From NCBI GenBank assembly GCA_964342815.1, contig CAYFHS010000006.1:1-64000 (forward strand): a stretch of DNA of 64,000 bases. The letters run 5' to 3'. Shown here piece after piece: positions 2,529-32,366 of this stretch. The DNA is from an uncultured archaeon (lineage in GTDB: Archaea > Thermoplasmatota > Penumbrarchaeia > JASLWR01). Position 1 is the stretch's first letter; each line of letters starts with the position of its first letter. Below the pieces are notes generated by a model, which was given only the letters and a program-made list of their open reading frames with translations, was not told where the DNA came from and did not search any database. A program made the position numbers and the translations under genes.

Positions 2529-2771
2529 ATGACTATCCGCATCACTATCAGGGATGCCGACACTGGCAGTAAAGTGGAGATGGACCTTGAAGAAGATAAT
2601 TCGATTGAGGAGACCATAGAAAGCGCGGCAAGTTACTGGGAAAAGGAAGCAGGCGCCTACGTGCTTAGATACGGAAAAAAGGTGCTGCGTGGACAGACCA
2701 CCATCGGAATGTCCGCCATCCGCGACGGGGACCTCCTTGAGTTAATTCCAGACCCCGAGGGCGGTTGTTGA
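2529..2771 (+). CDS. Ubiquitin-like (beta-grasp, Ub/YukD-type) small protein with C-terminal GG-Cys
   Basis: 80 aa. YVLRYGKKVLRGQTTIGMSAIRDGDLLELIPDPEGG aligns by eye with ubiquitin [42 protein letters not shown] RBS upstream. Confidence 0.75.
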   Translation: MTIRITIRDADTGSKVEMDLEEDNSIEETIESAASYWEKEAGAYVLRYGKKVLRGQTTIGMSAIRDGDLLELIPDPEGGC

Positions 2772-2969
2772 GCAAACTCAGCCCGAGGGGGTATGTGTTT
2801 TCTCACCCCTTTTGCCTTCAATGCCGCAAACGGATTTCTGACGTTTAGTAAGGTAAATCCACAAAAATATCGGTTGACCGTTTGCCAGAATTATTTGATT
2901 TAGCAAAAATTCTTTATTTAATCTGCTGTACCAGCAGGTAAATTATACCGGTTACAGGTGTATGTAATT

Positions 2970-3836
2970 ATGAAAGCGGATGCTGGAAAACTTCTCGATC
3001 TATTGGAGGAAGAGGTGGAAGGTATCGGGCTCGAGGCTCGTAAAAAACTGTTTCCCATTATCGATGGATTCATAAACGATCTTAAACGTGAGTTGGGAAA
3101 GGTGATGAAACTTAAGGCGGACAAGCGTCTACGGAATCTCGAAATATCACTGAAGCAGAAATACAACAAACGATCTTCTGTGGTACGACTTTCGGACATC
3201 CCCGAACAGCTCATAGCCGAGATACGCGAGATATGCGAGTTAGAACTGGCATCCAAGTACCGGGACAATGAAATAAAATCGTCCGGAAAGATGATTGCCC
3301 GTGATGAACCGGATTCCGAAACCGGGCCTATGGACGCTTCCTTATCCGACGAAATTACCGAGGAACTCCCCGTATTGACCCCAATTGAGCCTGTTGAACT
3401 CTATATCGGGTCTCTGGCATTCAGGACCATGATGGAACATTGTGTCGATCTTGGAAACCAGGAACTGGAAGCCCTGGGATTCCTGCTTGGAGATCATTTC
3501 ACCCATGGAGGGGAAGAATATACCGTTGTGGAGGAAGTGGTCACTTCGGAGCTGGATTCCTCTTCCATATCGGTGAAAATAAAGGATTTCACCTCCATGT
3601 TCGAGAGAATGTACGAGCTTGAGAAAGCTGGAAAGGACTATATTCTCGTCGGTTGGTATCATTCTCACCCGGGTCACACCTGTTTTCTCTCCCCCAGTGA
3701 TATCGAAACTCAGAAACGCATGTTCAGGGAATCTTACCACGTGGCAGTGGTGGTGGACCCCGTTAACACCGAGATCAAATCGTTCAAGCTGAAGCAGGGA
3801 GACACCCGGGAGATATCCTTCGGCGTATATAGATGA
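2970..3836 (+). CDS. JAB/MPN+ (JAMM) metalloprotease, Rpn11/CSN5-like, with a helical N-terminal extension
   Basis: EALGFLLG, VGWYHSHPGHTCFLSPSDIETQ (HxH-x10-D) and AVVVDP. ATG 2970 chosen because AGGTG lies upstream; the track starts at GTG 2958. Confidence 0.9.
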   Translation: MKADAGKLLDLLEEEVEGIGLEARKKLFPIIDGFINDLKRELGKVMKLKADKRLRNLEISLKQKYNKRSSVVRLSDIPEQLIAEIREICELELASKYRDNEIKSSGKMIARDEPDSETGPMDASLSDEITEELPVLTPIEPVELYIGSLAFRTMMEHCVDLGNQELEALGFLLGDHFTHGGEEYTVVEEVVTSELDSSSISVKIKDFTSMFERMYELEKAGKDYILVGWYHSHPGHTCFLSPSDIETQKRMFRESYHVAVVVDPVNTEIKSFKLKQGDTREISFGVYR

Positions 3837-3851
3837 ATTTAACTGGGAATA

Positions 3852-4139
3852 TCAACCTCGTTTAAGCTTTATACCCTTCGGCAGCAGGATTCCCAGTAAC
3901 AGCAGTACGAAAAAACAGATCAGAATAAAGTAGAAGAGGACCACTTCATCCGAAGGCCAATTAATCAGATCTTTAACAACGTTCACGAGAATGAAGAAGG
4001 CCGCTATCACCAATAAGAATCCAAAGACTTTCCAAGTATTCTTCACATTTAAGGGCCAGTTCCTCCTGGGGTCAGGGAATTTAAACCCTATGATCAGCAA
4101 GATCACAATGAATGCCATTATCAACCAATGGGCCCACAT
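3852..4139 (-). CDS. Small membrane protein (about 3 TM)
   Basis: Three hydrophobic stretches; starts 6 bp after the AAA gene stop, same strand. Confidence 0.65.
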   Translation of the reverse strand: MWAHWLIMAFIVILLIIGFKFPDPRRNWPLNVKNTWKVFGFLLVIAAFFILVNVVKDLINWPSDEVVLFYFILICFFVLLLLGILLPKGIKLKRG

Positions 4140-4145
4140 AATTTA

Positions 4146-7100
4146 TCAATCCCAATCGTCGTCTTCGTCATAGTCTTCTTCACGGTACCTGCTGGTTTCC
4201 CGCAGGTCCGCTTCCTCCCACCCGTTCTCCGCTCTATCATCATCCTCTTCATCATAGTCATCATCCCACCCCTCATCATCTTCTTCACCGCCATCATATC
4301 TGCTTACCCTATACGATCTCTCTTGCTCACCCCGCCCGCTTTCTTTGGTCACCTTCTTTCCACCACCGGTTATCTTGTGAACCTTTCTCTCGTAGTGAGA
4401 CTGTAATTCTATGTAATCCTTCTGCATCTTCTTCGAGATCGACGGCTTCAGTATCTCAATCATATCACGGAAATCGTCCATGCTGATCGTGGTGCTCCTC
4501 TTGGTTGAAAGCGCCCGCCTCATTGCCTGGGTGGCGCATTCACGGCAGAGGTTTGCAATGTCCGCTCCGGAATACCCATCGGTGAGCTCGGCAATCTCTT
4601 TCACGTTGATCTTTCCTCCCGTGGGCTTGCCTTTCATGTGTATCTTCAATATCTCCATCCTATCCCGGGGTCCCGGTGGTGGCACGTACATCACCTTGTC
4701 GAACCTACCCGGCCTTAATAGTGCGGGATCCACCAGCTCGGGTTTGTTGGTGGCCGCGATTATTATTATCCCCGAGAACTCGTCCATTCCGTCCATCTCT
4801 GATAGCATGATACTTAAAAGCCTTGGGGTGACGTCGTCTGCGCTGTAGAAGTCTCTCCTCTTTGCAATGGCGTCGATCTCGTCCAGGAACAGCAGGCAGG
4901 GTTGCTTTTCCCGGGCTATCTTGAACAGATCGTTTATCAGGTTCTCGGACTCACCGTACCACTTCGACATTACGTCGGAACATTTGACCCCTATCATCTC
5001 CACATTCAGCTCGGTTGCTATTACCCGCATAAGCAGCGTCTTCCCGCATCCCGGGGGACCGAAAAGTATCATGCCCTTGGGGGGTACCACTCCGTATTTT
5101 CTGGACATTTCCGGCCTAAGGAGCGGGCCTATCATCGAATCGGTTATCTCACTCTTGACGCCTTTCAGACCGCCAACATTTTCGAAAGACGATTTCCGGA
5201 AGCTCATCATATCCGATATCCTCGTACCCACCCCTATGGTCTTCTTATCAACATAGAACTCGGAGTAGGCACCCCTCAGAATGAAGGCAAGGGAAATGGC
5301 GAAAAGGAGAGCCGGGAAGGCAAGAACGTAAACAAATATATACTTCCATGAAAAGACCAGGTCGGTGGTAAAATCGGCAAGGAACATCCCTCCTATGGTG
5401 GCTGCGAGAAGTATGCCTCCTGCGGTGAACGAGTAGATGAATACAGTTTGGTTTTTATTCTTTGTCTCAAGCTTTTTCTTTATGAGATATACCACCAGAA
5501 CCATCAGGACCCATACCAATACCTGCAGTATCGGTACCATTGACGACATGTAATCTTTTATGAAGCTGATCATGGCACCACCGTCGATATCCCTTATACC
5601 GCCGAATGCATTGAAGTATTGAGTGGGTGAAAATAATTTATCCCCCGGGACCTTCGAGAACGTTGTAATGCTGCTCTTTTCGGTTGCGTAGGGTGATACT
5701 ATGAAAGAAAGGTTGATCACGTTGCCTGTGGCCGTCACCATGGATAGGAACAGCCCCGATACAACGGTGACGGTGATGCTGGTAAAAAGCGAGAACAGAA
5801 AGATCGAGAACACGGGAACCAGGAACGAAATCCCGAAGGTAGAGAGAAATACGGTCAGGAACGATAGATAACCGAATTTCCAGTTAAAAAGAGAGCAGAC
5901 ACAGACGATGAGGGCGAATATCATGAATAATAAGCCGAACTGCGCTGTTTGAAAGGCAGTGGAGCCGATGACTGCGAAGCTGATGAACAGCAGTGCGATA
6001 TACGGGAACCGATATCCTATAGCCCCCGTGACGAGAGCGATGATCATGACCATCCACCAGGGATAGAAGGGGCACCACAGGGCTCCGAAGAATCCCAGGA
6101 AACCGAATGCCACGGCAGTGCTGATGTCCTTTTTACGCTCTATGCTCCGAAGGCGTTTCTCGAGATCGATAACTATCTTTCGGTATCCCTTGATTTCAGT
6201 TTTTTCCTGTATTTTTCCCTTCTTCTTTGCCTGTTTCTTCTCTTCCGCAGATTCCCGCTCTCGAGCACCCCGGTCTTTCAGATATAGAAAAGCGATGGGG
6301 AACATTAGGGTTACGATTGCAAGTGTTACAATAACCCTGAGTGACGGAAAGTCCATTATGTCGAGGCCGGTTGAGATGTCTTTCACGTCATAATATATCA
6401 GGAACGTGGATTCCGTTGTATTCTCGTCGATCCTTACGGTTATCTCCTTCGGTTCATAACCGATTTCCAGGGGTTCCACCCTGATGTTGTATTCTCCATC
6501 CACCATGTCCGTGGGCGTCCAGATTAGACCGTTTACAGTTTCCATGGAAAAGAGATATCCAGCAGAGTTGTATACGGTTATCTCCGCTTCGATATAATTG
6601 GATATTATATTGTCGTATGCTCCGGCTATTATTCCGTAATGATACGTTTCTTCAGGCACTTCCACCACGTATTTATAATCTCTCGAGGTCATGGGAGTGT
6701 CGTATTCGTCGTAGGCAGTAACGGAAAAGACAACAGTGGTGTTCCCGTGGTAATAGGGAATATTTGTTTTGTAAGATGTATCGTCGATCCGGGTCATGGA
6801 TTTCGACCAGTCGATCCAATTGGGATTGCCCGGAAGCTGGAAGGAAACGTTTAAGTCGGCCCGGTTGATGATCACCACGGGATTGTTTCCCTCAATCTTC
6901 ACTTCGACGGTATCGTTGACAGAGGGAGGGACCGGGCCGTAGCTTAGGTTCATGTTCGCCTCGAAGGTGTGAAACCGCCAGGATATCTTTGGCTCCACGT
7001 TGTAGTAGTAGGTTCGGGACCTTAACTGCCGGACTCCGTCGTAAACAGTAACGTAGAATGATATGTTGGTGTTCCCCGGGTACCCGTAGAGTTCGACGAA

Positions 7101-7403
7101 GGCATCTGTCTTGCTAGTCAGATTCATTTCATATGCACCGGAGGATTTGAAATCCCCTCCTCTGATGTCCAACCAGATGTATGCCCACAAGAGCTCCACA
7201 TCGTTCAGCGAGTGAATTGTAACGTTAACCTCCTCATATTCAGATGGGATCTCCGGAGTATAAATTAGCTGGACATTGTCGTCGAAATTGTCGTTTACGA
7301 ATACGGCACCTTGGGCGTTGTCCATAGCAAGGGAAAGTGCCAGAGTGGAAATGAATCCAAGCAGTATCAGCGGTATTATCCATCGGTAATTCATGGCTAT
7401 CAC
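4146..7403 (-). CDS. Polytopic membrane-anchored AAA+ ATPase (Cdc48-like module) with an N-terminal ectodomain and acidic tail
   Basis: Signal peptide, about 330 aa beta-rich region, about 10 TM, then GPPGCGKT, LFLDEID, KWYGESE pore loop and ATNKPELVDPALLRPGRFD. No HExxH protease domain seen. Confidence 0.9.
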   Translation of the reverse strand: MIAMNYRWIIPLILLGFISTLALSLAMDNAQGAVFVNDNFDDNVQLIYTPEIPSEYEEVNVTIHSLNDVELLWAYIWLDIRGGDFKSSGAYEMNLTSKTDAFVELYGYPGNTNISFYVTVYDGVRQLRSRTYYYNVEPKISWRFHTFEANMNLSYGPVPPSVNDTVEVKIEGNNPVVIINRADLNVSFQLPGNPNWIDWSKSMTRIDDTSYKTNIPYYHGNTTVVFSVTAYDEYDTPMTSRDYKYVVEVPEETYHYGIIAGAYDNIISNYIEAEITVYNSAGYLFSMETVNGLIWTPTDMVDGEYNIRVEPLEIGYEPKEITVRIDENTTESTFLIYYDVKDISTGLDIMDFPSLRVIVTLAIVTLMFPIAFLYLKDRGARERESAEEKKQAKKKGKIQEKTEIKGYRKIVIDLEKRLRSIERKKDISTAVAFGFLGFFGALWCPFYPWWMVMIIALVTGAIGYRFPYIALLFISFAVIGSTAFQTAQFGLLFMIFALIVCVCSLFNWKFGYLSFLTVFLSTFGISFLVPVFSIFLFSLFTSITVTVVSGLFLSMVTATGNVINLSFIVSPYATEKSSITTFSKVPGDKLFSPTQYFNAFGGIRDIDGGAMISFIKDYMSSMVPILQVLVWVLMVLVVYLIKKKLETKNKNQTVFIYSFTAGGILLAATIGGMFLADFTTDLVFSWKYIFVYVLAFPALLFAISLAFILRGAYSEFYVDKKTIGVGTRISDMMSFRKSSFENVGGLKGVKSEITDSMIGPLLRPEMSRKYGVVPPKGMILFGPPGCGKTLLMRVIATELNVEMIGVKCSDVMSKWYGESENLINDLFKIAREKQPCLLFLDEIDAIAKRRDFYSADDVTPRLLSIMLSEMDGMDEFSGIIIIAATNKPELVDPALLRPGRFDKVMYVPPPGPRDRMEILKIHMKGKPTGGKINVKEIAELTDGYSGADIANLCRECATQAMRRALSTKRSTTISMDDFRDMIEILKPSISKKMQKDYIELQSHYERKVHKITGGGKKVTKESGRGEQERSYRVSRYDGGEEDDEGWDDDYDEEDDDRAENGWEEADLRETSRYREEDYDEDDDWD

Positions 7404-7407
7404 ATCT

Positions 7408-8898
7408 TCAGGTGCCCACAGCGACCTTTTGTCTCGATATCAATCGTTTTTTGAGTTTTAATCGTTCGATGATTCCCAGCCCAACGAAACCGGCAATAAA
7501 GTATTCCACGGGGAAGACAACCGGAGTGGCTGCTGCAGGCAATCCAGTAGGAGCGCTAAGAGGGATCACCGTTGGGGGGGCGGGATTTATCACCACCACA
7601 GGGGAGCCTCCGGGGGGTGGCGGGGGAGGTGGCGGAGGTCCGGGCATTGGCGGCGGGCTCGGAGGGATCATCCATTCCAGGGGGGGTTTAGATGATTTGA
7701 TAGTAAGCGTGACAGTGGAAAAGAACTCCTGGTGTTCATCGTCCCTTACATTGTACACTACTCTGGCAGAGTTAGGGGGATGGAGAGAAACATTTGAATC
7801 TATGAGGTTTGAGGAGATATTGTAGCTGATAAGTATCTTATCACCGATGCTGACCTTGCTTATGTTCCATTCCATGACAGTCAGATTGTCTTCTGTGCCG
7901 TACATGGCATCCGGGTATCTCGTAAACGAGTTTTGGTCGATGTAAAAATCATTGTACAGAACGTCCCGGATCATCGGTTCTGAATCATTGACGTCCGGGT
8001 CGTACCCGGCGGTGTAGTTGCGAAACCTCATTGCTATATTCTCGTAGATGGGCTGCAGATCGTTTGCAGTCTTGGCAATGAAATATTCCCCTCCGGTCAT
8101 ATTTGCGATCCACTTTAACAGCTCCTCGTCAACCAGGGATGAGGACCTATCTTGGTATAGTCCTATGGTATGAATGGTTATGTTCAACGCAATGGTCTCG
8201 TTAAGCACATCGGTGGTTATGTTCGTTGATAGCGGTTCAGGTTTACCATCCGTAAGAAGTATGCAAACCCAAGACTTGTTCTCTTCTCCATAATTTAAAA
8301 ACTCAGCGTTCATTAATTGTATCGCAGCATTGAAGTTTGTTCCATCCTGATTGTCCCAATCGCTGAGATCGCTCATAACCCTGTCATAATCGGAGGACAA
8401 ATGATGGCCGCCTACCAGTTCCGCATTTCCATAGAATCTCACTACGGCAGCCCTATCCGGTGCTAGCAAATGCTCCGTGTAATTCTTTGCCGCCTCGAGC
8501 CTGAGGAAATCCGTATCTGCATCATTCATGCTTGTGGAGCTGTCAACGGTGAAAACAACATCCTGGGAATTGAAATCGATTGCGGGATTTCCTGCACCGG
8601 ATATCTCCAGATTGACAGTTGCATTTTTTGGCCCCCTTTCGTCGTCTTTCTGCCAGATCTCATCGATTGAAACGGATTTATCTACCACCAGATGGGGAGG
8701 TGAGTTTACATCGATACCGGCGTCTGTTCGCTGCCGTGGTCCTTCGACTGGGTTTTCGGCTATTTCAAGATCAAGCGGTTGCGAATTGAGATATACGGAG
8801 CCAGCGGGAGCGGCTCCATGGATTTGGATAAGATAAGCTGCCAGGCAGAAAAGAACCCCAGTTATGATTGCAATGGTTGTGCCCCTCATCTTATACAT
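7408..8898 (-). CDS. vWA-domain surface protein with Pro-rich linker and C-terminal TM
   Basis: MIDAS DSSTS, GTNFNAAI, LLTDG; poly-Pro linker; hydrophobic helix followed by RLKLKKR. Confidence 0.85.
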   Translation of the reverse strand: MYKMRGTTIAIITGVLFCLAAYLIQIHGAAPAGSVYLNSQPLDLEIAENPVEGPRQRTDAGIDVNSPPHLVVDKSVSIDEIWQKDDERGPKNATVNLEISGAGNPAIDFNSQDVVFTVDSSTSMNDADTDFLRLEAAKNYTEHLLAPDRAAVVRFYGNAELVGGHHLSSDYDRVMSDLSDWDNQDGTNFNAAIQLMNAEFLNYGEENKSWVCILLTDGKPEPLSTNITTDVLNETIALNITIHTIGLYQDRSSSLVDEELLKWIANMTGGEYFIAKTANDLQPIYENIAMRFRNYTAGYDPDVNDSEPMIRDVLYNDFYIDQNSFTRYPDAMYGTEDNLTVMEWNISKVSIGDKILISYNISSNLIDSNVSLHPPNSARVVYNVRDDEHQEFFSTVTLTIKSSKPPLEWMIPPSPPPMPGPPPPPPPPPGGSPVVVINPAPPTVIPLSAPTGLPAAATPVVFPVEYFIAGFVGLGIIERLKLKKRLISRQKVAVGT

Positions 8899-8904
8899 CC
8901 GTCC

Positions 8905-11900
8905 CTAGTCGTAAAAATCATCTTCATCGTCAATCCAGCCGCTCATTTCATCAACATCGTCAGCAGCTATTCCATAGGGTTTATCGCTTTCTCCCCTCTC
9001 TTCTCTCATACGCCTGCGCTGATCCTTCCAGTCCTTCTTTCTCCTCTTCGTCTCCGCCTCATCCTCTTCCAGGTAATCCGTTTCGTCTTCTGGCTCGTCT
9101 TCAAGCCATCCCCCCATCTCCTCCATGTCCTCCTGGGCATCCTGGTAGCGTCCTCCACGGCCTTTTTTATTCCCACGTCTCCCTTTTTTCCCCTTTCTCC
9201 CATTACCACGCGTTGAAGACTTTTTCTTCTCCTCTCTCCTTTTGGATCCCTTAAAGGAGGATAATCTTCCGGAAATTCTATCGTCTTCCTCTTCCGTATC
9301 TTCTTCTATCCCATCCTCCGCTTCCAACAGGTCCGAGGTCACAACTGCAGTATCGCTTTCAGTCTCATCAGATTTCCCCTGGTCTTCCTCTTTATTTCCC
9401 CTCTCCGCCTTTTCCATTTTATCGCCTTTCACCCATTTTTTAGCCTGGCCCGTTCGTATCAGCACGAAAATGATAATTATTATCACCAGTATCAGAAGAA
9501 TGAAAAGAATTAACGGCATAGTATCGCTGAATTCCTGAAGGAATGGCGTTTCGTTCTTCACTTCTATCACGGATGATTGGATTCTCTCGTTACCGTACTC
9601 GTCCACTGCTTTTATCTGATATGTGTGCTTACCATTGTCCTCCACATCGGTTGTCCATATGTACCAGAATGAGTTGTCCGCCTCGTCATATCCCATCTCT
9701 TTCCAGCCGGTTCCTTCTATGTTTATATACATTCGCGAAGCATTGTCATTGTTCTCCACCCTGAACTCGATCTCGCTGTCTCCCTTTACTGGTACGTTGT
9801 CAAGCAGGACGCCTGGCCCCATGTTATTGAAGCTTACCTGCACCATAGCAATATTCGACTTTCCCACATAGTCCCTTGCGGTGATAATGAGGGTATGGCC
9901 ACCGTCCTGATATTTCGCGGTATCAATGGGGACTTCGTACAGGCCGGTTACCGGATTGATAAATACGCTGACAGGTGTACCATTGTCCACCGACATGGCC
10001 ACAGATTCTATCGAGACAGTGTCGTAACAATATGCCTTAACAGTATTCGTTCCGGTCAGGTGATCTCCTATCCCCGGAGTGACCACGGTTAGATCCGGTA
10101 CTGAATTGTCCACATTTACTTTTATTGTACGTGTTGTGATGTGTCCGGCCTCATCAACCGCCATTAATTCTATTTCGTGGGCTCCGTCGGTGTAGTTCCT
10201 GGTATCCCAAAGGTTCAGCCCAGTGGAGTTGATCTTCACCCAACCGGTTTTGTCCACATTGTATTGAATATTTGTGTTATAATGATCCGTTGAGCTTACG
10301 ACTATCTCGGCAAGGCCGGTAATATAAGAGTTTCCGGTTGGTTTTTTGATATCGAGTGTGGGGAAGTTCCCGTCGACTCGGAACTGTACCGGAGCAAGGG
10401 TAACCGTGTTAAGGGACCCATCATATGCTGTAACCGTAATTTCATAGCTGCCGTCCGGGATACCGTAAAGTGATTGGGTGTACTCGTAGTAATTGGTGAC
10501 GGAATTGTGTGTTGCCTGAACCCTTTTTGCGTATGAAGAACCTGCAAAAATGTAGAGCTCCACCTTCTCGACGCCCAGGCTGTCCGAGGCAAGTACCCTG
10601 AATGTCATGGATCCTTCCACGAACTGATCCGGTGTTGGACTGTGAACCGTGCATTCCGGAAATCCGTTGTCCACAGTTACCGTGATGGTCTCCACCACAG
10701 TGTGTCCAATGGCGTCCCTTGCTCTTATTGATATGGTATGCATTCCATCCCCGACCCTGGTGGTATCCCATGGAACGCCGATATGATGCCATCCGGATGA
10801 ATCCACGTTGTACTCGGTGGGATTGGGGTACGAATCGATAGTTGTGACGTTGATGTCCACGCTTCCATTGAGATAATTAAGGTTCTTGGGGCTGTTGATC
10901 TCCAGCTTGGGTGGTGTGTTGTCCACGTTGAAGAAGACTGGTCCTGCATTCGCCTCCTTTCCGGAAAGATCGTAAGCCCTGGCTGAGATCGTCTGGATCC
11001 CGTCCTCCAGGATCACAGTGGTATCAAGGCTGTACTCGTAATAACCGCTCTGGCTGTTGAATGTAGCATTTACAAGTTCGTTGTATATGTCCAGGACAAC
11101 TTGAGATATACCAACTGCGTCGCTCACCTTTATCTTGAAGGTCACGACACCCTGCACATATTGGTTATCGTACGGGGTATGTATCTCGCAAGTGGGCTTC
11201 TTGTTATCCACTGTCAACGTTATGGTTTGGAGGGTCGAATGTCCAGCGAGGTCTCTGCCCCGAATATCTATAACGTGCTTTCCGTCGCTTATCGACGTTG
11301 TGTTCCAGTGAACCGAAACATCATTCCAACCGCTGGAATCCACATTGTATTCGAGAGATCGTGGGAATGACTCTCCACTAAATGATGCGTTAAGCTGAAC
11401 CAAACCGGAAACGATATCGCCCTCCCGCGGGGAATCAATAAGGAGCTTGGGTGCATTGTTGTCGACCTGGAAATCAACCTGGGCTGATATCGTAAGATTC
11501 CCGGCTCGATCCAGCGCCATTATAGTGGCCGAATAATTCCCGTCACTGACTCCGTTCGTATCAAAAATACACTCATAGTAACCCGTACCGGCGTTGTAGC
11601 TCATGGAAATGTTCACAATCTCAGTCTGGCTGGACATATCCACGATAACGGCCCTTACACTGCTGAGTCCCACCTCATCGGAGACGATGGCGCCAAGTGT
11701 GTATATCCCTGCCAGGAATTGGTTCGCGGAAGGGAGATTAAGTCTGCATTCCGGGTCATGATTGTCTATGGTAATTATAATGCTCTCAAGGACCTCATGG
11801 CCGGCAATGTCCCTAGCTCGGATCCTCATAACATGGTCCCCGTCCGGAAACAGTCCCGTACTCCAATTGACCGAGCTGTTGACCCAGCCCGAACTATCGA

Positions 11901-14900
11901 TATTATATTCGATAATGTCCAAAAAGGTATCGGTTACTGATATGTTTAGGCTGAATGTCCCGTATACTATCTGGCCGTTCGTTGGCTCATATATCGTCAT
12001 TCTCGGAAAGTTGTTGTCTATGTTGAACTCTCTGCTGGCGGATGATCTGCTAAGACCCGCTTTGTCATGAGCGTATGCTGTGAACCAGTAGCTGCCGTCC
12101 GGGAGATTTGCGGTTCCCAGTACCAGTTCGAAATAGCCGGAATCAGAATTATATCCCATGGAAGTGTTGGAAACCAGCTCTACCCCTGTTTCGTTTATTA
12201 TTGTGCCGTTCACGCTTTCAATCCCGATATCGTCCGTGGCTGTTACCCTGAACGAGTAAAGCCCCTCTATGAATTCCCCCGTTATCGGGGTAATCACAGA
12301 AGATTGATCCGGCGCGGTGTTGTCCGCGATGAAATTTATTTCCAGGGTGGATTCGGCACCGTACGGGTCCTTTGCGTTCACGTAGAGAACATGGGCTCCG
12401 TCAAGATACTGGGATGAATCCATTACGGCTCCGAATTCGCTTCCGGAGAGCAGAGACATGTTGAACCATGCGTTTGCGTCTACCCGGTAACGGGGATTGG
12501 TGTCGGTATCCTGGATCCCATCCGGGTCGCTGATGTTCGCTATGATCTGATAATTACCCGATACAATGGCTCCAGCCACGAGGTTTTTCATTATAATATC
12601 CACGTCGTTGAATATCTCAATATTCCCGGATTGACTGCCCAGATTACCCGCTTTGTCGTATGCGTTTACAGTGTAGGTATAGACCCCCGATACGAGTCCT
12701 GTGGTGACAGTTACGTTTTCCGAGGAGTAGTCGCCGTCGTAGGCTGTTTCGTCGTTCCCCAATCCATCATCCCTCATGGGCACCTGATTGGCACCGCCTA
12801 TGTTGGATGCATCGAGATAAACATTCCCCAACCCGGTCTGACCGTCAGAACAATTGGACACCACGTATATGGAATATCCGTCTTGGGCCTTGGTGCGGCC
12901 AGCGGGATAGGTGGTATTCACCCGGCCTACTGAGGGCTGTATGTTGTCCAATCTCACTGTGTATTGTGTTCCGTTCATGTTGCCCGCACGGTCGGTCCCT
13001 TCCACCTGAAATACGATATCGCCCGTTTCCAGGCTGTTCACGGTAACCAGCTCGGAGCCGTATATGTCGTCGTTGGCCTTTCCGTCGGCGTGCTTTCCGT
13101 CGTCGAACATGTTCACCTTGAGGGCGAGACCTATGGATGAGAGATCCGCCTGGATGGAATCGATTCCGTGGGGCTGTTCTATACCCAGGGTGCTGGCGCC
13201 GAAACTCTGGATCACCTGGGAAACGTTGTTGTAGATGTCATACAAGTCTGTGGAGGACGGAGCAAAATAGTATTTACCCCCAATCGAAGAATTGGCTATG
13301 CTCCAAAGGTCGAACTCGGTGGTGTATTTGTAGGAAGCGGCAGTCGGATCAAGGTAACCGGAAGCTGTGGCATTGGTTCCCTGGGGCCACATCCCCAGAC
13401 CAATGGTGAAGATCGGGATACTGGCATTTACCAGCCCCGTACGCGTCCTTTCGGCCGATCCCCCCGGAAAATTAGCCGTGGTCTTCGCGTTGATAGGATT
13501 GGTATCTCGCTCCCTCTGTATGGAAGGATAGGCTCTCATTGGCGAGTCCCATATACAGCCTCCGCTCACGCTCCAAGTCTGTCTACCCGCACCGTTAGGT
13601 GCTCCGGGACAGTATGTTTCCGAGCCGGTTTCGAGCCGGTTTCCACCAAGTGTTCCACCGGTATCGTTACCGTCGGTCATTGCGATGATTACGGGAACCG
13701 CCTCCTCTCTCCGGTTGTTGAGGGCATACTGGATTCCCGTACCGATGGTATCCCATATGGGAGTGTTGGCCAATGGCTGGCCCGACACCATAGTCAAGTG
13801 GGCCCCGTCGTCCACGGTGATTATGTATTTCGAGATATTGCGCCCGGTGTCCGTTTCAGGGGAGCCCTGCGGATCGTTATAGGTTTCGGACATAATAAAA
13901 AAGGGGGAGTACTGTTTGACGTCTTCCAGAGCCCCACCCCCCTGTCGGTCGAAAGATACTATGGCGCACCTGTCATTATCTGCAAGCTGATCAATAAATG
14001 TGGATGAAGCGTATTCGAGGTCATCCCATTTCATTCCTCCGGAGCCGTTCGAGTCACGCATTGATCCCGAATTATCCAGAACAAGCACCACATCCAGAGG
14101 TTTTCTCTCGACGACATCCTCGATCAATATTTTGTAATCCAACGCCTTTGCCGTGACCCTAATTGTGTCTCCATTTTTGACAGCTACCTGACCCGCCGGG
14201 AGCATGGTATCGATCTCCAGTATCGTTGGTTCGTACTGGTCCACGTTGCATGCGGCAGTGACGTTTCTAAAATTCCCCTGTGAATCTGTGGAATGAACGT
14301 AGGCTGCCCGATATCCCCCGCCAACCGTTACATTTACCAGCGCCGTACCGTAAATATTATCATTGGGTGCCCCATCGTTGTGGAGTCCGTCGTCGTACAT
14401 GGTAAGATCGGATGCGTCACCGATCATAGTGGCATCGCAGAGAACCGAAGAAATAGAGGAAACCGATTCTGTTACTTTTGCGGTAATTGTGACCTTGTCG
14501 CCGGGTTTTGCCGTATCCTGGCCGGTTGGATAGAGTGTTGTTGCATTGGTGATCTGAGGTCCGGAATTGTCGAACTTGACCGGGATCGAGGTAATGTCGT
14601 CAGTGGTATCTCCCGTTGAATCGTATCTGATTATATGGCGCCCGTCACTCCATCCCGATGTGTTTATCTGGAAAGACCATGTGGGACCGCCGGACATAGT
14701 GGCGATCAACACCCCGTCTATACTCAACTCCACCTTGTCTGCATTTGTGGAATTACACCTGAAGTTCACAATGCCGGTAAGGATATCTCCCGATTCCGGG
14801 ATATAGGGAGTAACGGGATTCGCACTTGTGGTTCCGGTGAACAAACCCAAGACTCCAAACCAACTGATAACGATCATTGCGGTCATGGCAGTAGCAGACC

Positions 14901-14931
14901 ATTTACTTCTATAGTTGAACATAACAATCAC
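8905..14931 (-). CDS. Giant (2008 aa) surface protein: Ig-like repeats, vWA, three choice-of-anchor-X-like motifs, C-terminal TM and charged tail
   Basis: DVVLVLDNSGS MIDAS, AMTDG; DDGLHNDGAPNDNIYG, DDGKHADGKANDDIYG and DDGLGNDETAYDGDYS; about 10 'DNxxP' Ig boundaries; TM LILFILLILVIIIIIFVLI. Confidence 0.88.
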   Translation of the reverse strand: MIVMFNYRSKWSATAMTAMIVISWFGVLGLFTGTTSANPVTPYIPESGDILTGIVNFRCNSTNADKVELSIDGVLIATMSGGPTWSFQINTSGWSDGRHIIRYDSTGDTTDDITSIPVKFDNSGPQITNATTLYPTGQDTAKPGDKVTITAKVTESVSSISSVLCDATMIGDASDLTMYDDGLHNDGAPNDNIYGTALVNVTVGGGYRAAYVHSTDSQGNFRNVTAACNVDQYEPTILEIDTMLPAGQVAVKNGDTIRVTAKALDYKILIEDVVERKPLDVVLVLDNSGSMRDSNGSGGMKWDDLEYASSTFIDQLADNDRCAIVSFDRQGGGALEDVKQYSPFFIMSETYNDPQGSPETDTGRNISKYIITVDDGAHLTMVSGQPLANTPIWDTIGTGIQYALNNRREEAVPVIIAMTDGNDTGGTLGGNRLETGSETYCPGAPNGAGRQTWSVSGGCIWDSPMRAYPSIQRERDTNPINAKTTANFPGGSAERTRTGLVNASIPIFTIGLGMWPQGTNATASGYLDPTAASYKYTTEFDLWSIANSSIGGKYYFAPSSTDLYDIYNNVSQVIQSFGASTLGIEQPHGIDSIQADLSSIGLALKVNMFDDGKHADGKANDDIYGSELVTVNSLETGDIVFQVEGTDRAGNMNGTQYTVRLDNIQPSVGRVNTTYPAGRTKAQDGYSIYVVSNCSDGQTGLGNVYLDASNIGGANQVPMRDDGLGNDETAYDGDYSSENVTVTTGLVSGVYTYTVNAYDKAGNLGSQSGNIEIFNDVDIIMKNLVAGAIVSGNYQIIANISDPDGIQDTDTNPRYRVDANAWFNMSLLSGSEFGAVMDSSQYLDGAHVLYVNAKDPYGAESTLEINFIADNTAPDQSSVITPITGEFIEGLYSFRVTATDDIGIESVNGTIINETGVELVSNTSMGYNSDSGYFELVLGTANLPDGSYWFTAYAHDKAGLSRSSASREFNIDNNFPRMTIYEPTNGQIVYGTFSLNISVTDTFLDIIEYNIDSSGWVNSSVNWSTGLFPDGDHVMRIRARDIAGHEVLESIIITIDNHDPECRLNLPSANQFLAGIYTLGAIVSDEVGLSSVRAVIVDMSSQTEIVNISMSYNAGTGYYECIFDTNGVSDGNYSATIMALDRAGNLTISAQVDFQVDNNAPKLLIDSPREGDIVSGLVQLNASFSGESFPRSLEYNVDSSGWNDVSVHWNTTSISDGKHVIDIRGRDLAGHSTLQTITLTVDNKKPTCEIHTPYDNQYVQGVVTFKIKVSDAVGISQVVLDIYNELVNATFNSQSGYYEYSLDTTVILEDGIQTISARAYDLSGKEANAGPVFFNVDNTPPKLEINSPKNLNYLNGSVDINVTTIDSYPNPTEYNVDSSGWHHIGVPWDTTRVGDGMHTISIRARDAIGHTVVETITVTVDNGFPECTVHSPTPDQFVEGSMTFRVLASDSLGVEKVELYIFAGSSYAKRVQATHNSVTNYYEYTQSLYGIPDGSYEITVTAYDGSLNTVTLAPVQFRVDGNFPTLDIKKPTGNSYITGLAEIVVSSTDHYNTNIQYNVDKTGWVKINSTGLNLWDTRNYTDGAHEIELMAVDEAGHITTRTIKVNVDNSVPDLTVVTPGIGDHLTGTNTVKAYCYDTVSIESVAMSVDNGTPVSVFINPVTGLYEVPIDTAKYQDGGHTLIITARDYVGKSNIAMVQVSFNNMGPGVLLDNVPVKGDSEIEFRVENNDNASRMYINIEGTGWKEMGYDEADNSFWYIWTTDVEDNGKHTYQIKAVDEYGNERIQSSVIEVKNETPFLQEFSDTMPLILFILLILVIIIIIFVLIRTGQAKKWVKGDKMEKAERGNKEEDQGKSDETESDTAVVTSDLLEAEDGIEEDTEEEDDRISGRLSSFKGSKRREEKKKSSTRGNGRKGKKGRRGNKKGRGGRYQDAQEDMEEMGGWLEDEPEDETDYLEEDEAETKRRKKDWKDQRRRMREERGESDKPYGIAADDVDEMSGWIDDEDDFYD

Positions 14932-15220: not shown

Positions 15221-17287
15221 ATGGATTTCGACCTGAAAAAAAGGAAATATTTTGCCATAACAGCTGTGGTAGTATTGGGCCTAGCCGCTTTTGGTCTTTA
15301 CACCCTCATACAACCTGGGAAAGAGCCCATACCCCCTTATGAACCCACCATCGATCTTCCGAAAGAGTACATAATTCTCGTTGACGAACCCAAAAATCTC
15401 GATGACATGATGTTTATTTCATCCTTGTCCTCAATTGCTGTCAGGGAACAATATCATCCTCTGTTCATACTTGAGGACGGAAAACTGGACGATCATCAAT
15501 TGTGGACCATTGAACACTTTGTTGACGAAATAAAGAACGCCCCGAAGCTTTTGTTCACTTCCGATGAGACTGTGTTGAACAATGTTAAGGGTCAGGTCGA
15601 TGGAGTGGTACAATACGAGATATCCAACGACGTGCTTGCTCAGTTTAAGGGATTTGACGACGTTATCGATGTGAATTCTTACTCTGAGGCGCTATGGGCC
15701 GCCCCGGTGGCTCGGGTGGAAAACAAGGTCATCCGGTTAGGCCGTACAACCTTCACTAAGCAGGAAGAGGCATGGGACCGCTTGCAGGACAATGGAATAA
15801 ACGCAAGATATATCGTGGTGACGAACCCTTATGATCTTTCAACCCCGCTCATGGCCAATAATACGGAATATTACGACGAGTATGATTCGAACTTCCACAC
15901 ACCGTCCCTATCACTGGTATCGGCACAATTGGCTGCCTATCACAAGGCTTACGTACTTACGAGCGCACCTGTTTCCACCAAAGAAGTTTATACATTCGAG
16001 AACCCGAATTTCGATCCAGTGGAAAATTACCAATTAAATGCCAGGGCAACTGGCTATTATCTTGCACTGAAAGAGCTGTCTGCCGGATATTATGACCCTA
16101 AGGCCGATTTTGAACAACATGAGATTTACAAGGATTCTCCCGAATATGTTTGCATCGTGGGGAGTGCCGCTGCCGTTCCCCAGTTCCAGATACCTGGCAA
16201 CGGTGACGGTGACGATCTCGTTAGCTGCGACGTGATCTTCGGATTTCTGGACGATGATGACACACTGATGGATGCAGCCGTAGGTCGAATAGTGAACTAC
16301 AACGTGCAAGGTGCATCGAACCAGATGACGAAGACACTTGGATTCGATTACGTCGTAGATAAGGTAACGGTAGAATATTCGGACGGTCCCCGGGACGTTG
16401 AATGGAGAAAACACGGGGCCTCCTTCAGCGGGTTTGATATAACTTACAAGAGAATGCAGGTTTCTCCTGCAAGGTGGGTTTGCAAGGACTATACTGACGA
16501 GGGATTGGATTATGAATACTATGGACCGGCTCTCGTAGAGCAGGATATTACGGTCACACCGGAGACCACTCTCGAGCCTGCGGTTCAGGCCAGCGGATTC
16601 CTAGCCTACCGGGGACACGGGAGCGACAACGGAGGTTTGTATATGATCGCCTACAAGGCGGGGGATGAAAACGCGGTACTGCGCGGAACCGAGGCCAGGG
16701 AGTTATTCATCCCACCGCAGGTGTCTTTTTTCGTATCGTGCATGAACGGTAAGATCCACGGGAAGGATTTCGGAGATGGGGCTCCGGACGTACCCTACGA
16801 CGAATTGTTTTCCACGAACTATCAATACGGAGGCGCAGTGGCACTGGGAGGGGCAACTGAAGTGAGCTACAGCAATATCGGACAGGATTTATATTCGTAC
16901 CCGGAGGAATATCTCCCCGGTATACTGAATCCGGAATGGGGTGATGGAGATCACGAGTGGAACCGGAACGACGCCTGGTTCGCATTCTTCTGGGAGGGTA
17001 TGCTGAATGATGAGGAAGGCCACGGAAGTATCGGAAAGGCCCTGCAGTGGGCCGAGAACCGTTATATCGCCTATCAAACCTCAAAGGGGATGCCAGTGAC
17101 ACCTTTTAAATCCATAATGTCCGGCGGTAGCAACGGAGATACCGGCGAGGACCCCGCGGTGCACTGGAAAGAGGTGGCAATGTTCGTTATTTACGGGGAT
17201 CCCGCATTCACTCCGTACAGCTGGAAGGCGGGCGAGAACAGTTACAACCCCTGGAAGAACGGTGTTGACGAAGGGGATGACCTCTAG
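15221..17287 (+). CDS. Membrane-anchored/secreted peptidase C25 (gingipain-like) family protein
   Basis: N-terminal TM; VGRI motif, AYRGHG and FVSCMNG (His/Cys dyad), YGDPA near the C-terminus. Confidence 0.7.
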   Translation: MDFDLKKRKYFAITAVVVLGLAAFGLYTLIQPGKEPIPPYEPTIDLPKEYIILVDEPKNLDDMMFISSLSSIAVREQYHPLFILEDGKLDDHQLWTIEHFVDEIKNAPKLLFTSDETVLNNVKGQVDGVVQYEISNDVLAQFKGFDDVIDVNSYSEALWAAPVARVENKVIRLGRTTFTKQEEAWDRLQDNGINARYIVVTNPYDLSTPLMANNTEYYDEYDSNFHTPSLSLVSAQLAAYHKAYVLTSAPVSTKEVYTFENPNFDPVENYQLNARATGYYLALKELSAGYYDPKADFEQHEIYKDSPEYVCIVGSAAAVPQFQIPGNGDGDDLVSCDVIFGFLDDDDTLMDAAVGRIVNYNVQGASNQMTKTLGFDYVVDKVTVEYSDGPRDVEWRKHGASFSGFDITYKRMQVSPARWVCKDYTDEGLDYEYYGPALVEQDITVTPETTLEPAVQASGFLAYRGHGSDNGGLYMIAYKAGDENAVLRGTEARELFIPPQVSFFVSCMNGKIHGKDFGDGAPDVPYDELFSTNYQYGGAVALGGATEVSYSNIGQDLYSYPEEYLPGILNPEWGDGDHEWNRNDAWFAFFWEGMLNDEEGHGSIGKALQWAENRYIAYQTSKGMPVTPFKSIMSGGSNGDTGEDPAVHWKEVAMFVIYGDPAFTPYSWKAGENSYNPWKNGVDEGDDL

Positions 17288-17300
17288 TAGGGAATAGTTC

Positions 17301-19001
17301 ATGGCCAGCAAATCTCACGTTCCGTCATTATATCGTTCCCTTTTACGCGAGGCAAAAGGGTCACAACTCGAAGATATCAAGGGGTTCCGGAGTTTTTTCA
17401 GGGAAGCCAGGAAACTTGACGATCCTTACTATTCTGCATTGGCTCTTTTCAGGCTCTCTTCCGATTCCCGGGTACCGTTGAACGAAGCGTATTTTACAGC
17501 TGGCGAAGCGCTGGATATAGTGAAGAAGGTCAAGAGAATATGGAGGCGGGGGGAGCTGATATCGGCAATAACCCGGTTCATGGGGAAATGGAGGAGTGAC
17601 GCGGGTGACCTGGAGGAGACAGATAAGAAAGAACTGCTTTACGAGCGGATCATGGATCTGATCTCATCGCTGCCGCCGGGAAAAGGACTTTCTACTACTA
17701 TTAAAGAATCGGCAAAGCATCTTTCCCCTAACTTCACTGGACCACTACTCGGGAAGGCGTTGAGTAACGAAAATTTCATTCGTGATGATATCAAGGCAGT
17801 TATCAGGGCATGGGCTAAGGCTATAAATAAAAAAACCGTTTCAGTTGAGAAGATCATATCTCTCTTGTCAACAGTCAATGACCCATATGATGAAAGCCGA
17901 TTCCTTGGTTATCTGCAGTTGCAAATTAACAAGAACGACATACCCGGTTCCATGTTGGCTTTCGAAGGTGCGATAAAGGCGGCACTGAAGGTCGATGACG
18001 GAAACAATCGTGTGGATGCCTTTCGTTATCTCGTCAGTACGGCGGAGACCACGGATGAATTGGAGCGATTGAGGGATGCCGCACACCGTCTCGATAAACC
18101 GGAATATTCTGCTAGACTCCTTTCGGCGCTGGGTGGTAAAGCGGACAAGATCTATCCGGATGTGGCAAAGGATTGGTTCATGGAAGGAGTTTCCCACGCT
18201 GAAAAGGTGATTGATGCAGCGGAACGGGCGGGGTTACGTCTGAATCTGGCGGAGGGTCTCAAGCGATCTGGTTTGAACGACGATGCAAAGGACGTCTTCC
18301 AGCTAGCGCTTGCCGATTGCGACCTGATCTCTCGTGACGGAGTGGAAAAACCGGTCTTGGGAAGGATCGAGCGTTCTGCAGCAGGATATGGGATGAAAGT
18401 TCCTGAAACAAAATCGGCGATGGAAATCTCATCGAGACAGTTGGGAGAAAGGTCTATTCCTCCGGTAGGCGAGCACGTTCTAGCATTATTTAACACCTAC
18501 CAGGGCGGATTGAGCCCTGTGCATCTGAGGGCGATCTCCAGAGCTGCGCCATTGTGCTATGCATATGATCTCGATCTGGCGTTAATAGGTTTTCCCGCGT
18601 ACGATCTTGACAACCTAATCAACGAAGTAATTAGAGAAACCAACGTTGGAAAGGGAGGACGGTACATTCGTGAATTAGCCGCCGAGGGTAGAATCATATT
18701 GAAGGGAACGGATAATATCAACCTTCGGGAATCCGGCAGCATGGGGTTGATGGTAGCGACAACTGCAAATCCTGATGAGATGAAAAAAAGCACCCTCGAT
18801 GAATTGGTGAAGGAAACCGAAAAAGGGAGCGTGGGACCGAAATTATGTTTGATCATGGGTCTCGGGAAAAAGGGTCTTCCGCCATCGTTGTTAAAAGAAG
18901 CGTCTTATCACCTGGAGCTAACCGGAAATAATGTGTCGCTGGAGACCTGTACCGTGATGGGTATTATTGCCGAGAGGCTGAGGAACCTCGCTTCAAATTA
19001 A
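17301..19001 (+). CDS. Helical-repeat protein fused to a C-terminal DUF531 (SPOUT-like) domain
   Basis: C-terminal LALFNTY...HLRAISRAAPLCYAYDLDLALIGFP and GLGKKGLP...LELTGNNVSLETCTVMG resemble archaeal DUF531. N-terminal ~380 aa looks like TPR/HEAT-type helices. Confidence 0.7.
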   Translation: MASKSHVPSLYRSLLREAKGSQLEDIKGFRSFFREARKLDDPYYSALALFRLSSDSRVPLNEAYFTAGEALDIVKKVKRIWRRGELISAITRFMGKWRSDAGDLEETDKKELLYERIMDLISSLPPGKGLSTTIKESAKHLSPNFTGPLLGKALSNENFIRDDIKAVIRAWAKAINKKTVSVEKIISLLSTVNDPYDESRFLGYLQLQINKNDIPGSMLAFEGAIKAALKVDDGNNRVDAFRYLVSTAETTDELERLRDAAHRLDKPEYSARLLSALGGKADKIYPDVAKDWFMEGVSHAEKVIDAAERAGLRLNLAEGLKRSGLNDDAKDVFQLALADCDLISRDGVEKPVLGRIERSAAGYGMKVPETKSAMEISSRQLGERSIPPVGEHVLALFNTYQGGLSPVHLRAISRAAPLCYAYDLDLALIGFPAYDLDNLINEVIRETNVGKGGRYIRELAAEGRIILKGTDNINLRESGSMGLMVATTANPDEMKKSTLDELVKETEKGSVGPKLCLIMGLGKKGLPPSLLKEASYHLELTGNNVSLETCTVMGIIAERLRNLASN

Positions 19002-29049: not shown

Positions 29050-29270
29050 TAAATTATGTGTGATCCGGTAATTGTATGACAAGTTTTCAAGCTGAAAAAT
29101 TGGACAGAATTTATATCATATATGTATGTAATTTGGAGCTGATTCAGGTATAATGACATATAATCCGCAATTCATGAAATAGTTGGATCCTGTTTGAAGT
29201 TAGGTATGTTAGGTGACATTAATGGGATTCTCTCGTAAGATGTGAGGTATTGATCGAGGAAGGATAACGA

Positions 29271-32200: not shown

Positions 32201-32366
32201 CGCATCGGGTAATGATATCATCGAGTTATTTAAAAGGCTGGCGAGGGAGAAAAAAGGTATTTTAATGGTAACCCATGACATTGAACTGGCCCGGGCGTCC
32301 GACAGGGTCTATATAATCAGGAACGGTAGTCTGGAGGAATCACTTACCCAGGAGGTGGGAGTGTGA
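29271..32366 (+). CDS. Fusion protein: large ectodomain (CARDB/Ig/PKD), TM, LolD/MacB-type ABC ATPase
   Basis: Signal peptide; LDPNNVYAETQENNN (CARDB); WNFGDG (PKD); TM plus KKRR; GPSGSGKST, LSGGQQQRVA, LADEPTGNLD, VTHD. Confidence 0.85.
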   Translation: MEIIGKNQLAFIIILSLLIMPLNYVIVESHFKIESKKIDNNSLIGRAENFSFTTDIPTLFIGDAWNYVTMLNVTSTLDVPGQPISLDGNITENINYSVGKIVRIERNGTETLCYRIDFSGSSIMDVSGLDGNVRAVMDFAVTGNEYFSVADLSLVGKDTFRNGTLSIISPFGNDISGVNITSNETWNTPLEEYDFPLSYMEDWNQSFSRFVLYSGDIMGNPIDSQYTENILYNNSCTGIIFTNVKAGALDTLVVEVDDGTQIKYFSPEARAELKTIFNSGNYLDIPGLLVEIKEGKSELNSFALANVDYPIHLEIPAVVIPDSTVLISGIISGNLTGNVHIEIPGTGMSISAFLEQGSFSRGVILYRSGDNTPTYADIGSHGVVVYHGELHVLGVATITLADPEVSIFSGNLSAKPFGGVYAGAEVKISAEVNNPSIVPLENLVLRIEDNGKVVLPDRIISMAPRRKKTIFWNWTIHHPGDHIFTVILDPNNVYAETQENNNIAAIHYSVSEKPIPGFTNVTPAPGNFTLYENGLMLFSAEGVDPDGTIPLLEWHLDGVFVIVNNNTFQYHPDFNSSGNHTLSVTAVDVDEPNNVSMRTTIEWNIEVFNVNRFPLASINPLSSDSQYYAGDVINFSGNRSRDPDIALENISKQMNFTWNFGDGNSADGMEVKHSFSKAGIYEIRLNVTDPEGAFNFTKIYLNTTERIPDPGEIPNETGNDTDSEPNDDLVISEPSMIRSPLIFGLLLILMPVIIVIIVVKKRRMIKKKNESWGGEIDLQPKGPGDVSQYGKPVLRETSFEGPLVECQGLKKSFKLPGGGDLPVLKEIDLKLMPGEFVTLMGPSGSGKSTLLNVIGAMIPSSGGVVKVNGKSLGEMDYGELTAIRRNDVGWIFQDFNLIENLTALENIIIPMNLAGKVGPDVDLRAKQLLSLVGLGDRMGHFPDTLSGGQQQRVAAARALVNDPPLILADEPTGNLDSASGNDIIELFKRLAREKKGILMVTHDIELARASDRVYIIRNGSLEESLTQEVGV

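Follow-up and report, generated by a model that had tools for sequence, protein, structure and literature searches.

Classical AAA proteins such as FtsH, Yme1, Msp1 and Cdc48 act as hexameric rings, and substrates enter such a ring at the face where the AAA N-terminus emerges. In MoxR-VWA systems the work is divided between two partners, the von Willebrand factor A (VWA) domain gripping and the ATPase pulling. How archaea remove or remodel their membrane and surface proteins is poorly understood, and archaea are not known to have FtsH. The only named precedent that we found for a membrane-bound classical AAA protein of archaea without a protease is MBA of Sulfolobus (Serek-Heuberger et al. 2009), which is listed as an archaeal AAA group (PMC3493965). 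Here, a gene encoding a membrane-anchored AAA protein (hereafter membrane AAA) was analyzed, which lies in a 64,000-nucleotide stretch of DNA (the window; contig CAYFHS010000006.1, positions 1 to 64,000, assembly GCA_964342815.1) from an uncultured archaeon of the Thermoplasmatota (Penumbrarchaeia; JASLWR01). The protein joins an ectodomain and a polytopic membrane block to a Cdc48-type AAA module and has no protease domain. This architecture was confirmed to be real and unusual, and the family that shares it is a concrete candidate for membrane-protein extraction in archaea.

Domain architecture of the membrane AAA

The membrane AAA is encoded by a single open frame on the minus strand (4146..7403, 1085 aa), which is present in one copy in the genome. 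Because the database copy of the protein has 1082 aa and opens at the ATG of codon 4, this ATG (position 7394) is the likely true start. No stop codons or frameshifts were seen in the fused frame. At the N-terminus, hydropathy revealed a signal-peptide-like segment (aa 1-31, 7311..7403; all features of the gene lie on the minus strand) with a hydrophobic stretch at aa 8-28, in agreement with a first-pass annotation of the window made from its sequence alone.

The signal-peptide-like segment is followed by an ectodomain of about 315 aa (aa 32-345, 6369..7310) that carries many N-x-S/T sequons and is conserved. Its AlphaFold2 model, built from the family alignment, consists of three tandem beta-sandwiches of the immunoglobulin (Ig)/fibronectin type III (FnIII) kind with a mean predicted local distance difference test score (pLDDT) of 88.5, and Foldseek matched it to tandem FnIII/Ig structures in a generic way (E about 1e-8). 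In sequence, unit 2 (aa 141-252) repeats unit 1 (aa 38-140), at 29% identity over 102 aa (E 5e-6). The two similar Ig-like units that had been noticed at first were thus recovered, and a third beta-sandwich was added to them.

The membrane part begins with a transmembrane (TM) helix that is predicted to run from outside to inside (aa 353-375, 6279..6347; hydropathy and model). According to sequence and model it continues into a basic, helical cytoplasmic linker of 50 aa (aa 376-425, 6129..6278), behind which lies the polytopic block of about ten helices (aa 426-712, 5268..6128; hydropathy, alignment and model), hydrophobic throughout 427-712 except for a hydrophilic 50-aa loop at 570-622. Counted as 1 + about 7 + 3, the helices of the whole protein amount to approximately 10-11, close to the ten or so of the first-pass annotation. 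Helix parity and the positive-inside rule, applied to the lysine-rich loop 646-652 and to an AAA module that must be cytoplasmic, place loop 570-622 on the outside and the AAA module on the inside. The last TM helix is connected to the AAA module by a conserved linker (aa 713-737, 5193..5267) with the motif GTRI. In the family alignment G726 is invariant in the wider set, and G-T-R-I is invariant among 12 closer relatives.

The classical AAA module with its lid (aa 738-1006, 4386..5192) has intact catalytic and pore motifs and was assigned by Pfam, NCBIfam and tree. Beyond the lid only an acidic low-complexity tail of 80 aa was found (aa 1007-1085, 4149..4385), which contains GW-acidic motifs, ends in DWD and is expected to be cytoplasmic. 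A Pfam search of the protein gave no match to Peptidase_M41, so that the protease domain typical of FtsH is indeed missing, as had been stated before.

The membrane module and its family

The membrane block carries the signature motifs PFYPWW (445-450), YRFP (464-467) and AFQ (483-485; family consensus AYQ). Pro, Gly, Trp and Phe, together with one Gln, make up its invariant positions (PFYPWW 445-450, P467, Q485, G524, P530, G550 and W631), and the alignment contains no invariant His, Asp, Ser or Cys, Gln485 being the only invariant polar residue. This composition argues for a structural or conduit role of the block rather than catalysis. A model of the membrane part reached a predicted template modelling score (pTM) of 0.75 and a pLDDT of 69, with 80-90 in the core. 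Compared with the PDB by Foldseek, its best match had an E-value of only 0.57, and no usable match was obtained in the ESM Atlas. None of the Pfam families, at E-values up to 1, was consistently found across all 18 membrane-domain sequences. The membrane module is therefore new, having neither a Pfam family nor a solved fold.

When the non-AAA part (aa 1-735) was used as query, 15 proteins of about 1000-1400 aa were retrieved, each of which has an AAA domain. They cover mostly 95-100% of aa 1-735 at identities of 27-84% and are named just "AAA family ATPase" of Thermoplasmatota. In a sample of 401 Thermoplasmatota genomes the membrane part was present in 41, which include nearly all genomes of the window's class and six of the nine genomes of another family. 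It is nearly always encoded once per genome, in a frame of 1000-1440 aa. The genome of the window has one membrane AAA beside two soluble Cdc48 proteins and two PAN-like ATPases. DNA of the stretch was found at at least 99% identity in marine and seawater metagenomes of several studies, as short fragments of low coverage; in four other marine runs the fragments were likewise short and none spanned the whole membrane AAA gene. In the literature no description of this architecture, or of the gene cassette described below, was found, nor was a characterized family with this architecture.

A profile of the membrane module was searched against 1.84 billion representative proteins and returned 54 matches, 27 of them below E 1e-30 and all archaeal; nothing outside the family described here was detected among these representatives. 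The domain content of distant relatives was determined for ten of the weaker matches. In six of them the module stands at the very N-terminus, without an ectodomain, and is followed by two classical AAA modules. The two named proteins among these six belong to Micrarchaeota, and two of the six carry inteins. Another of the ten (P0049, Nezhaarchaeales, 557 aa) has the module (PFYP / YKxP / AYQ) in front of a KaiC/RAD55-type ATPase, while the C-terminal parts of the remaining three (P0051, P0052 and P0063) gave no Pfam match. The motifs PFYP, YRxP and AYQ can be recognized by eye in the distant members, and a profile-profile comparison with them (hhalign) gave 99.6% probability and E 1e-24 over 235 columns that include PFYP/YRxP/AYQ. 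A homologous polytopic module is thus found N-terminal to either AAA or KaiC ATPases, and it forms a new family that recurs with ring ATPases.

Some features of single distant members were observed in addition. The C-terminal end of P0052 resembles a zinc ribbon plus winged helix. The inteins of P0055 and P0065 (Intein_splicing; in P0055 also LAGLIDADG) split the first AAA module just after Walker A, and P0055 is the sole family member seen with a canonical end of the HbYX (hydrophobic residue-Tyr-X) type (GMYR).

The AAA module and a second ring

Pfam identified AAA (PF00004) at 778-908 (E 3.5e-40) and AAA_lid_3 (PF17862) at 932-978 (E 1.4e-14). Walker A (GPPGCGKT), the pore loop (KWYG), Walker B (LLFLDEID), sensor-1 (ATN) and the arginines of the second region of homology (PALLRPGRFD) are all intact, as had been noted from the sequence, and they are conserved throughout the family except for the first residue of sensor-1 (ATN, TTN or STN). 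With PF00004, AAA_lid_3 and all motifs present, the module belongs to the classical AAA clade. Among NCBIfam models the D2 part of CDC48 scored best (271.4 bits), followed by PAN (249), FtsH (227.7) and CdvC (175), all far below their cut-offs. The closest solved relatives are Thermoplasma VAT and p97; the alignment to PDB 5vc7 gave 255 bits to D2 and 185 bits to D1. The initial description of the module as Cdc48-like is in accordance with these results.

Many family members have a second AAA module behind the first, which is absent from the window protein. From 44 AAA domains a tree was calculated by a quick search with E. coli FtsH as sole outgroup. All membrane-proximal modules of Thermoplasmatota members fall into a single clade there (99% support), and their distal modules into a separate one (99%) that groups with the distal modules of Micrarchaeota (94%). 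Both kinds stand apart from D1 and D2 of the genome's own two Cdc48 proteins. This small tree resolves these clades and not the deep placement relative to Cdc48, PAN, Vps4 or Msp1.

The two rings also differ in their motifs. Among the Thermoplasmatota members compared, the proximal ring always has KWYG and Walker A and nearly always Walker B. In the distal ring the pore loop is not aromatic (e.g. SALAGQ), and Walker B is often degenerate. This pattern points to the membrane-proximal ring as the motor and to a distal ring in decay, and by tree and motifs the AAA module of the window protein is orthologous to the proximal ring (D1) of its two-ring relatives. In the simplest reading, the ancestor had the membrane module and two rings, and the lineage of the window lost the decaying second ring and has an acidic tail instead.

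A conserved gene cassette

In the window the membrane AAA gene is part of a cassette of four co-directional genes with gaps of 6-13 nt, in the order giant surface protein, VWA stalk protein, membrane AAA and a small protein with three TM helices. The giant surface protein (2008 aa, 8905..14931, minus strand) has a signal peptide, a VWA domain whose metal ion-dependent adhesion site (MIDAS) motif is DNSGS, many Ig repeats (Big_7/Big_13), one TM helix and a charged, disordered cytoplasmic tail of about 190 aa with GW-acidic motifs that ends in DDFYD. The VWA stalk protein (496 aa, 7408..8898, minus strand) consists of a signal peptide, a VWA domain with intact MIDAS (DSSTS), a polyproline stalk, a TM helix and a conserved cytoplasmic tail of roughly 20 aa ending in RQKVAVGT. 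The 3-TM protein (95 aa, 3852..4139, minus strand) starts 6 nt downstream of the membrane AAA and is conserved in the cassette. Neither the VWA stalk protein nor the 3-TM protein has a paralogue in the genome of the window, so both are single-copy.

Synteny was compared across 11 loci of five families (L020-L030). In eight of them the genes of the giant protein, the VWA stalk protein and the membrane AAA follow one another in this order, at identities down to about 30-35%, and in six of these eight the 3-TM protein lies downstream; the other three loci hold part of the cassette. The VWA tail reads QKV(A/S)VG(T/A/V) in nine of ten homologues compared (families f1, f3, f6 and f9), and the copy of f13 ends otherwise. 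Another lineage of Thermoplasmatota (f26) has the two-ring form without such an ectodomain, and the VWA genes are missing there. Directly upstream of the f26 gene one to several single-pass surface proteins are encoded, which share the C-terminus AEAEEKR(V/I)TL. At two loci (L031:11889-19941 and L033:11560-15692) one to several paralogous single-pass proteins with this C-terminus, 630-750 aa long and free of Pfam domains, were observed before a two-ring membrane AAA.

Further genes border the cassette of the window on its downstream side. On the plus strand, converging on it, lie an 80-aa open reading frame (ORF) and a JAB/MPN+ (JAMM) protein with intact HSHPGH...SPSD (2529-3836). A functional tie of the cassette to this ubiquitin-like (Ubl)/JAMM pair was rejected, since the JAMM gene adjoins the cassette only within the same genus. 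On the minus strand, the end of the window cuts off the gene (2-2278) of a protein in which seven FG-GAP repeats were recognized (integrin-alpha-type propeller, E 6e-46). Together with the VWA proteins it lends the locus an integrin-like flavour; the FG-GAP gene is not kept there beyond the genus.

An anti-phage role of the IetA/TRIP13 kind was considered as well and rejected. The IetA models of PADLOC match the AAA core alone (residues 757-973), and the partners have no PADLOC match. The membrane AAA is a single-copy core gene of the whole class.

C-terminal tails

Acidic GW motifs and an acidic-aromatic end occur both in the tail of the motor and in that of the giant protein, and also in their homologues from the single-ring lineages. 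Docking to the proteasome by an HbYX motif was rejected for the motor, as it ends in DWD, where an acidic residue precedes the aromatic one and the aromatic residue is Trp. The distance of this Trp from the end varies among relatives (DWE, WEGS, WEDE, YWM). Canonical HbYX ends were found in the same genome in the two Cdc48 proteins and in one of the two PAN-like ATPases (GYG, MYM and IYL).

A scan of the whole genome yielded about 27 large, single-pass, type-I-like surface proteins with an acidic tail and a Trp within the last 14 residues. By a crude classifier this kind of tail is enriched relative to other ORFs (odds ratio 8.7, p about 1e-11). The shared pattern looks like a short linear motif for a putative cytoplasmic partner. 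Examples were seen at C1:134812-139377, C13:8915-12889 and C26:5615-9046 of the genome (G000) and at 8905-14931 and 44252-45373 of the window, with endings such as GWDDEDDEWEV, EWEDDYYEED and DWLD.

Other genes of the window

Several unusual genes were observed elsewhere in the window, all on the plus strand. Divergent from the cassette, the gene of a gingipain-type Peptidase_C25 protein precedes one for a protein of 566 aa, of which the last 170 aa match DUF531 (15221-19001). At 19910-22165 a single frame of 751 aa joins the beta and alpha chains of serine dehydratase, and its N-terminus is extended by about 245 aa that could not be assigned. Two proteins are encoded in the region 26569-32366: one has six PKD domains and, at its end, a caspase-like C14 domain, and in the other a large CARDB/PKD ectodomain is joined to an ABC ATPase.

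A possible mode of action and its alternatives

We tentatively favour, at slightly less than an even chance, a hexameric unfoldase embedded in the membrane. It would take hold of single-pass surface proteins, its operon partners first, by their cytoplasmic tails and pull. That the protein forms hexamers, which way it pulls, what its clients are and what purpose it serves is inferred. In a hexamer, the ring of Cdc48-type ATPases would lie right beneath a collar of non-enzymatic modules with about ten helices each, and the outer face would carry eighteen Ig-like domains. The last TM helix leads through the conserved 25-aa linker to the AAA N-terminus, so that the substrate-entry face would look toward the membrane, as in FtsH, Msp1 and D1 of Cdc48. 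With the entry face tied to the membrane by this linker, polypeptide gripped by the KWYG pore loops would move from the membrane into the cytoplasm, and such inward threading would favour extraction or pulling of membrane-protein tails over an export motor. Of the two functions first proposed for the protein, a dislocase or a signal-gated channel, the dislocase fits the classical AAA polarity with the N-terminal face of the ring at the membrane, whereas the channel found no support of any kind. The first clients might be the VWA stalk protein, whose short tail is strictly conserved, and the giant protein, whose long disordered tail seems suited to an AAA pore. The motor could extract these integrin-like partners for turnover. 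Alternatively, the VWA protein may serve as a MIDAS-bearing gripping adaptor that is pulled from inside, in a transmembrane version of the MoxR-VWA logic.

Several observations weigh against the tail-pulling unfoldase. The hexamer and any central conduit, with the ring of about 60 TM helices that was first proposed, are assumed. The VWA tail, about 20 aa long and strictly conserved, might just as well serve for stable docking as for threading. The acidic-Trp tail was rejected as a private link between motor and giant protein: about 27 other surface proteins carry it, and as a general signature of the organism's surface-protein tails it does not single out this pair. No protease partner was identified, and the C-terminus of the motor is DWD and not HbYX. 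Finally, in the Micrarchaeota genome ARM-1 (0.8 Mb) the membrane AAA is solitary among housekeeping genes, and because it stands alone there, its ancestral role may have been general and not bound to VWA proteins.

This last observation also speaks for the main alternative, general quality control of membrane proteins, in which a protease-less archaeal stand-in for FtsH would extract any damaged or orphan membrane protein and hand it to soluble proteases (20S proteasome, LonB). The VWA cassette would then have been added in this lineage, or would reflect mere co-regulation. A membrane module with two AAA rings, kept alone among housekeeping genes of a reduced genome, would fit such a function, as would the single copy per genome and the near-universal presence in the window's class; many of the organism's surface proteins possess long, disordered tails in the cytoplasm, all of which might serve as handles. 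FtsH itself is only a distant relative by score, and the M41 domain is missing. We nevertheless consider this explanation possible but doubtful, because the cassette is kept tight and one-to-one in five families, its partners are single-copy and a partner's tail is strictly conserved, a conserved ectodomain of 300 aa is needless for a task on the cytoplasmic side, and an HbYX motif for docking to the proteasome is missing. In another alternative, the four products of the cassette would form a stable surface complex for envelope or adhesion functions, with the AAA ring serving only assembly, disassembly or inside-out regulation without threading. Four membrane proteins encoded in a fixed order, a conserved ectodomain, intact MIDAS motifs for protein-protein binding in both VWA domains and a short VWA tail resembling a docking peptide are all consistent with a scaffold. 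Yet the strictly conserved aromatic pore loop, the intact ATPase site and the arginine fingers are features of a threading motor, and the motor is kept in relatives that have neither ectodomain nor partners, so that a scaffold appears rather improbable to us.

We give a very small probability to an export motor like PTEX or Bcs1, in which the ring would push cargo such as the giant adhesin out of the cell through a conduit of membrane modules; the signal-gated channel falls under this reading as well. A large membrane domain without a known fold does adjoin a ring ATPase, and the neighbouring giant protein must cross the membrane. However, both VWA proteins have ordinary N-terminal signal peptides and would for this reason use the Sec route, the entry face of a classical AAA ring directed at the membrane implies inward threading, and conserved residues with charged or polar side chains that could line a channel are absent from the membrane block. 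Practically no weight is left for an artefact of assembly or gene calling that joined a membrane-protein gene to an AAA gene, a possibility already named in the first-pass annotation: the fusion is uninterrupted in 41 genomes of several families, and 15 independent database proteins show it, mostly with 95-100% coverage of the non-AAA part.

A bolder form of the tail-pulling unfoldase, which we hold to be unlikely, is a retrotranslocon and its motor fused in one protein. Six membrane modules would form a conduit or lateral gate above the Cdc48-type ring, and ATP hydrolysis on the cytoplasmic side would serve to reel in through the membrane, or mechanically load, the integrin-like surface proteins with VWA and Ig domains. 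If this were true, the protein would be an archaeal counterpart of Cdc48-driven dislocation as in endoplasmic reticulum-associated degradation (ERAD), or a transmembrane adhesin winch, and the same module would serve two-ring AAA proteins and KaiC in other archaeal phyla. Apart from this, a motor of the Cdc48 class that is hard-wired into the membrane is nearly universal in one class of marine Thermoplasmatota and is also found in DPANN archaea, and the family is thereby relevant to the history of Cdc48 at membranes before eukaryotes arose. The membrane module, recurring with different ring ATPases and without a known fold, is an attractive structural target.

Comparison with known systems

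By sequence, the motor is nearest to VAT/Cdc48/p97 (PDB 5vc7, 5g4f), with which it shares the classical motifs and a pore loop of the KW(Y/V)G type. These proteins have two tandem rings, as do many relatives of the window protein, whereas the window protein itself has one. Against TIGR01243 (Cdc48) it scored 271.4 bits with a cut-off of 802.65, and only model positions 450-731, the D2 part, were matched. CDC48_N and CDC48_2 gave no match, residues 1-735 being occupied by signal peptide, Ig-like domains and TM helices, and the HbYX tail in which Cdc48 ends is missing. The protein thus fails every defining feature of Cdc48 but the similarity of the AAA module.

In layout it resembles FtsH and Yme1, which also have an N-terminal membrane anchor with an extracytoplasmic domain, a short linker and one classical ring with the entry face at the membrane, and which extract membrane proteins by their tails, presumably the same job that the window protein would do. 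FtsH, however, has an M41 zinc-protease domain and two TM helices, while the archaeal protein lacks M41, has about 11 helices as well as Ig-like ectodomains and reached only 227.7 bits against the cut-off of 600 of TIGR01241. Together with its polytopic membrane part, which separates it from single-pass Msp1 and Bcs1, this upholds the distinction from these families that had been drawn at the outset. To Msp1/ATAD1 and to Hrd1-Cdc48 of ERAD there is a functional analogy only, in that an AAA ring at the membrane extracts single-pass proteins. Msp1 has one TM anchor, unlike the polytopic window protein. In ERAD channel and motor are separate proteins and the process depends on ubiquitin, whereas here a Ubl/JAMM pair adjoins the cassette in the window's genus only. 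In its mode of action the motor would be likened most to FtsH or Msp1, without the protease of the former or the single anchor of the latter.

The cassette recalls the MoxR-VWA systems (RavA-ViaA, CbbQ-CbbO and operons of the BatA/B type), in which an AAA-type ring ATPase is encoded with VWA/MIDAS proteins. MoxR ATPases belong to AAA_3, whereas the motor of the window has no AAA_3 match and falls into the classical AAA clade. In the cassette the VWA domains are predicted to be extracellular and the motor cytoplasmic, so any coupling between them must cross the membrane.

The MBA proteins are reportedly built differently, with an N-domain flanked by two TM segments and not a polytopic module. 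What the present family adds to the known systems is an apparent two-ring ancestry with loss of the second ring, the fusions in Micrarchaeota and to KaiC, the negative result for HbYX and a genome-wide class of acidic-Trp tails.

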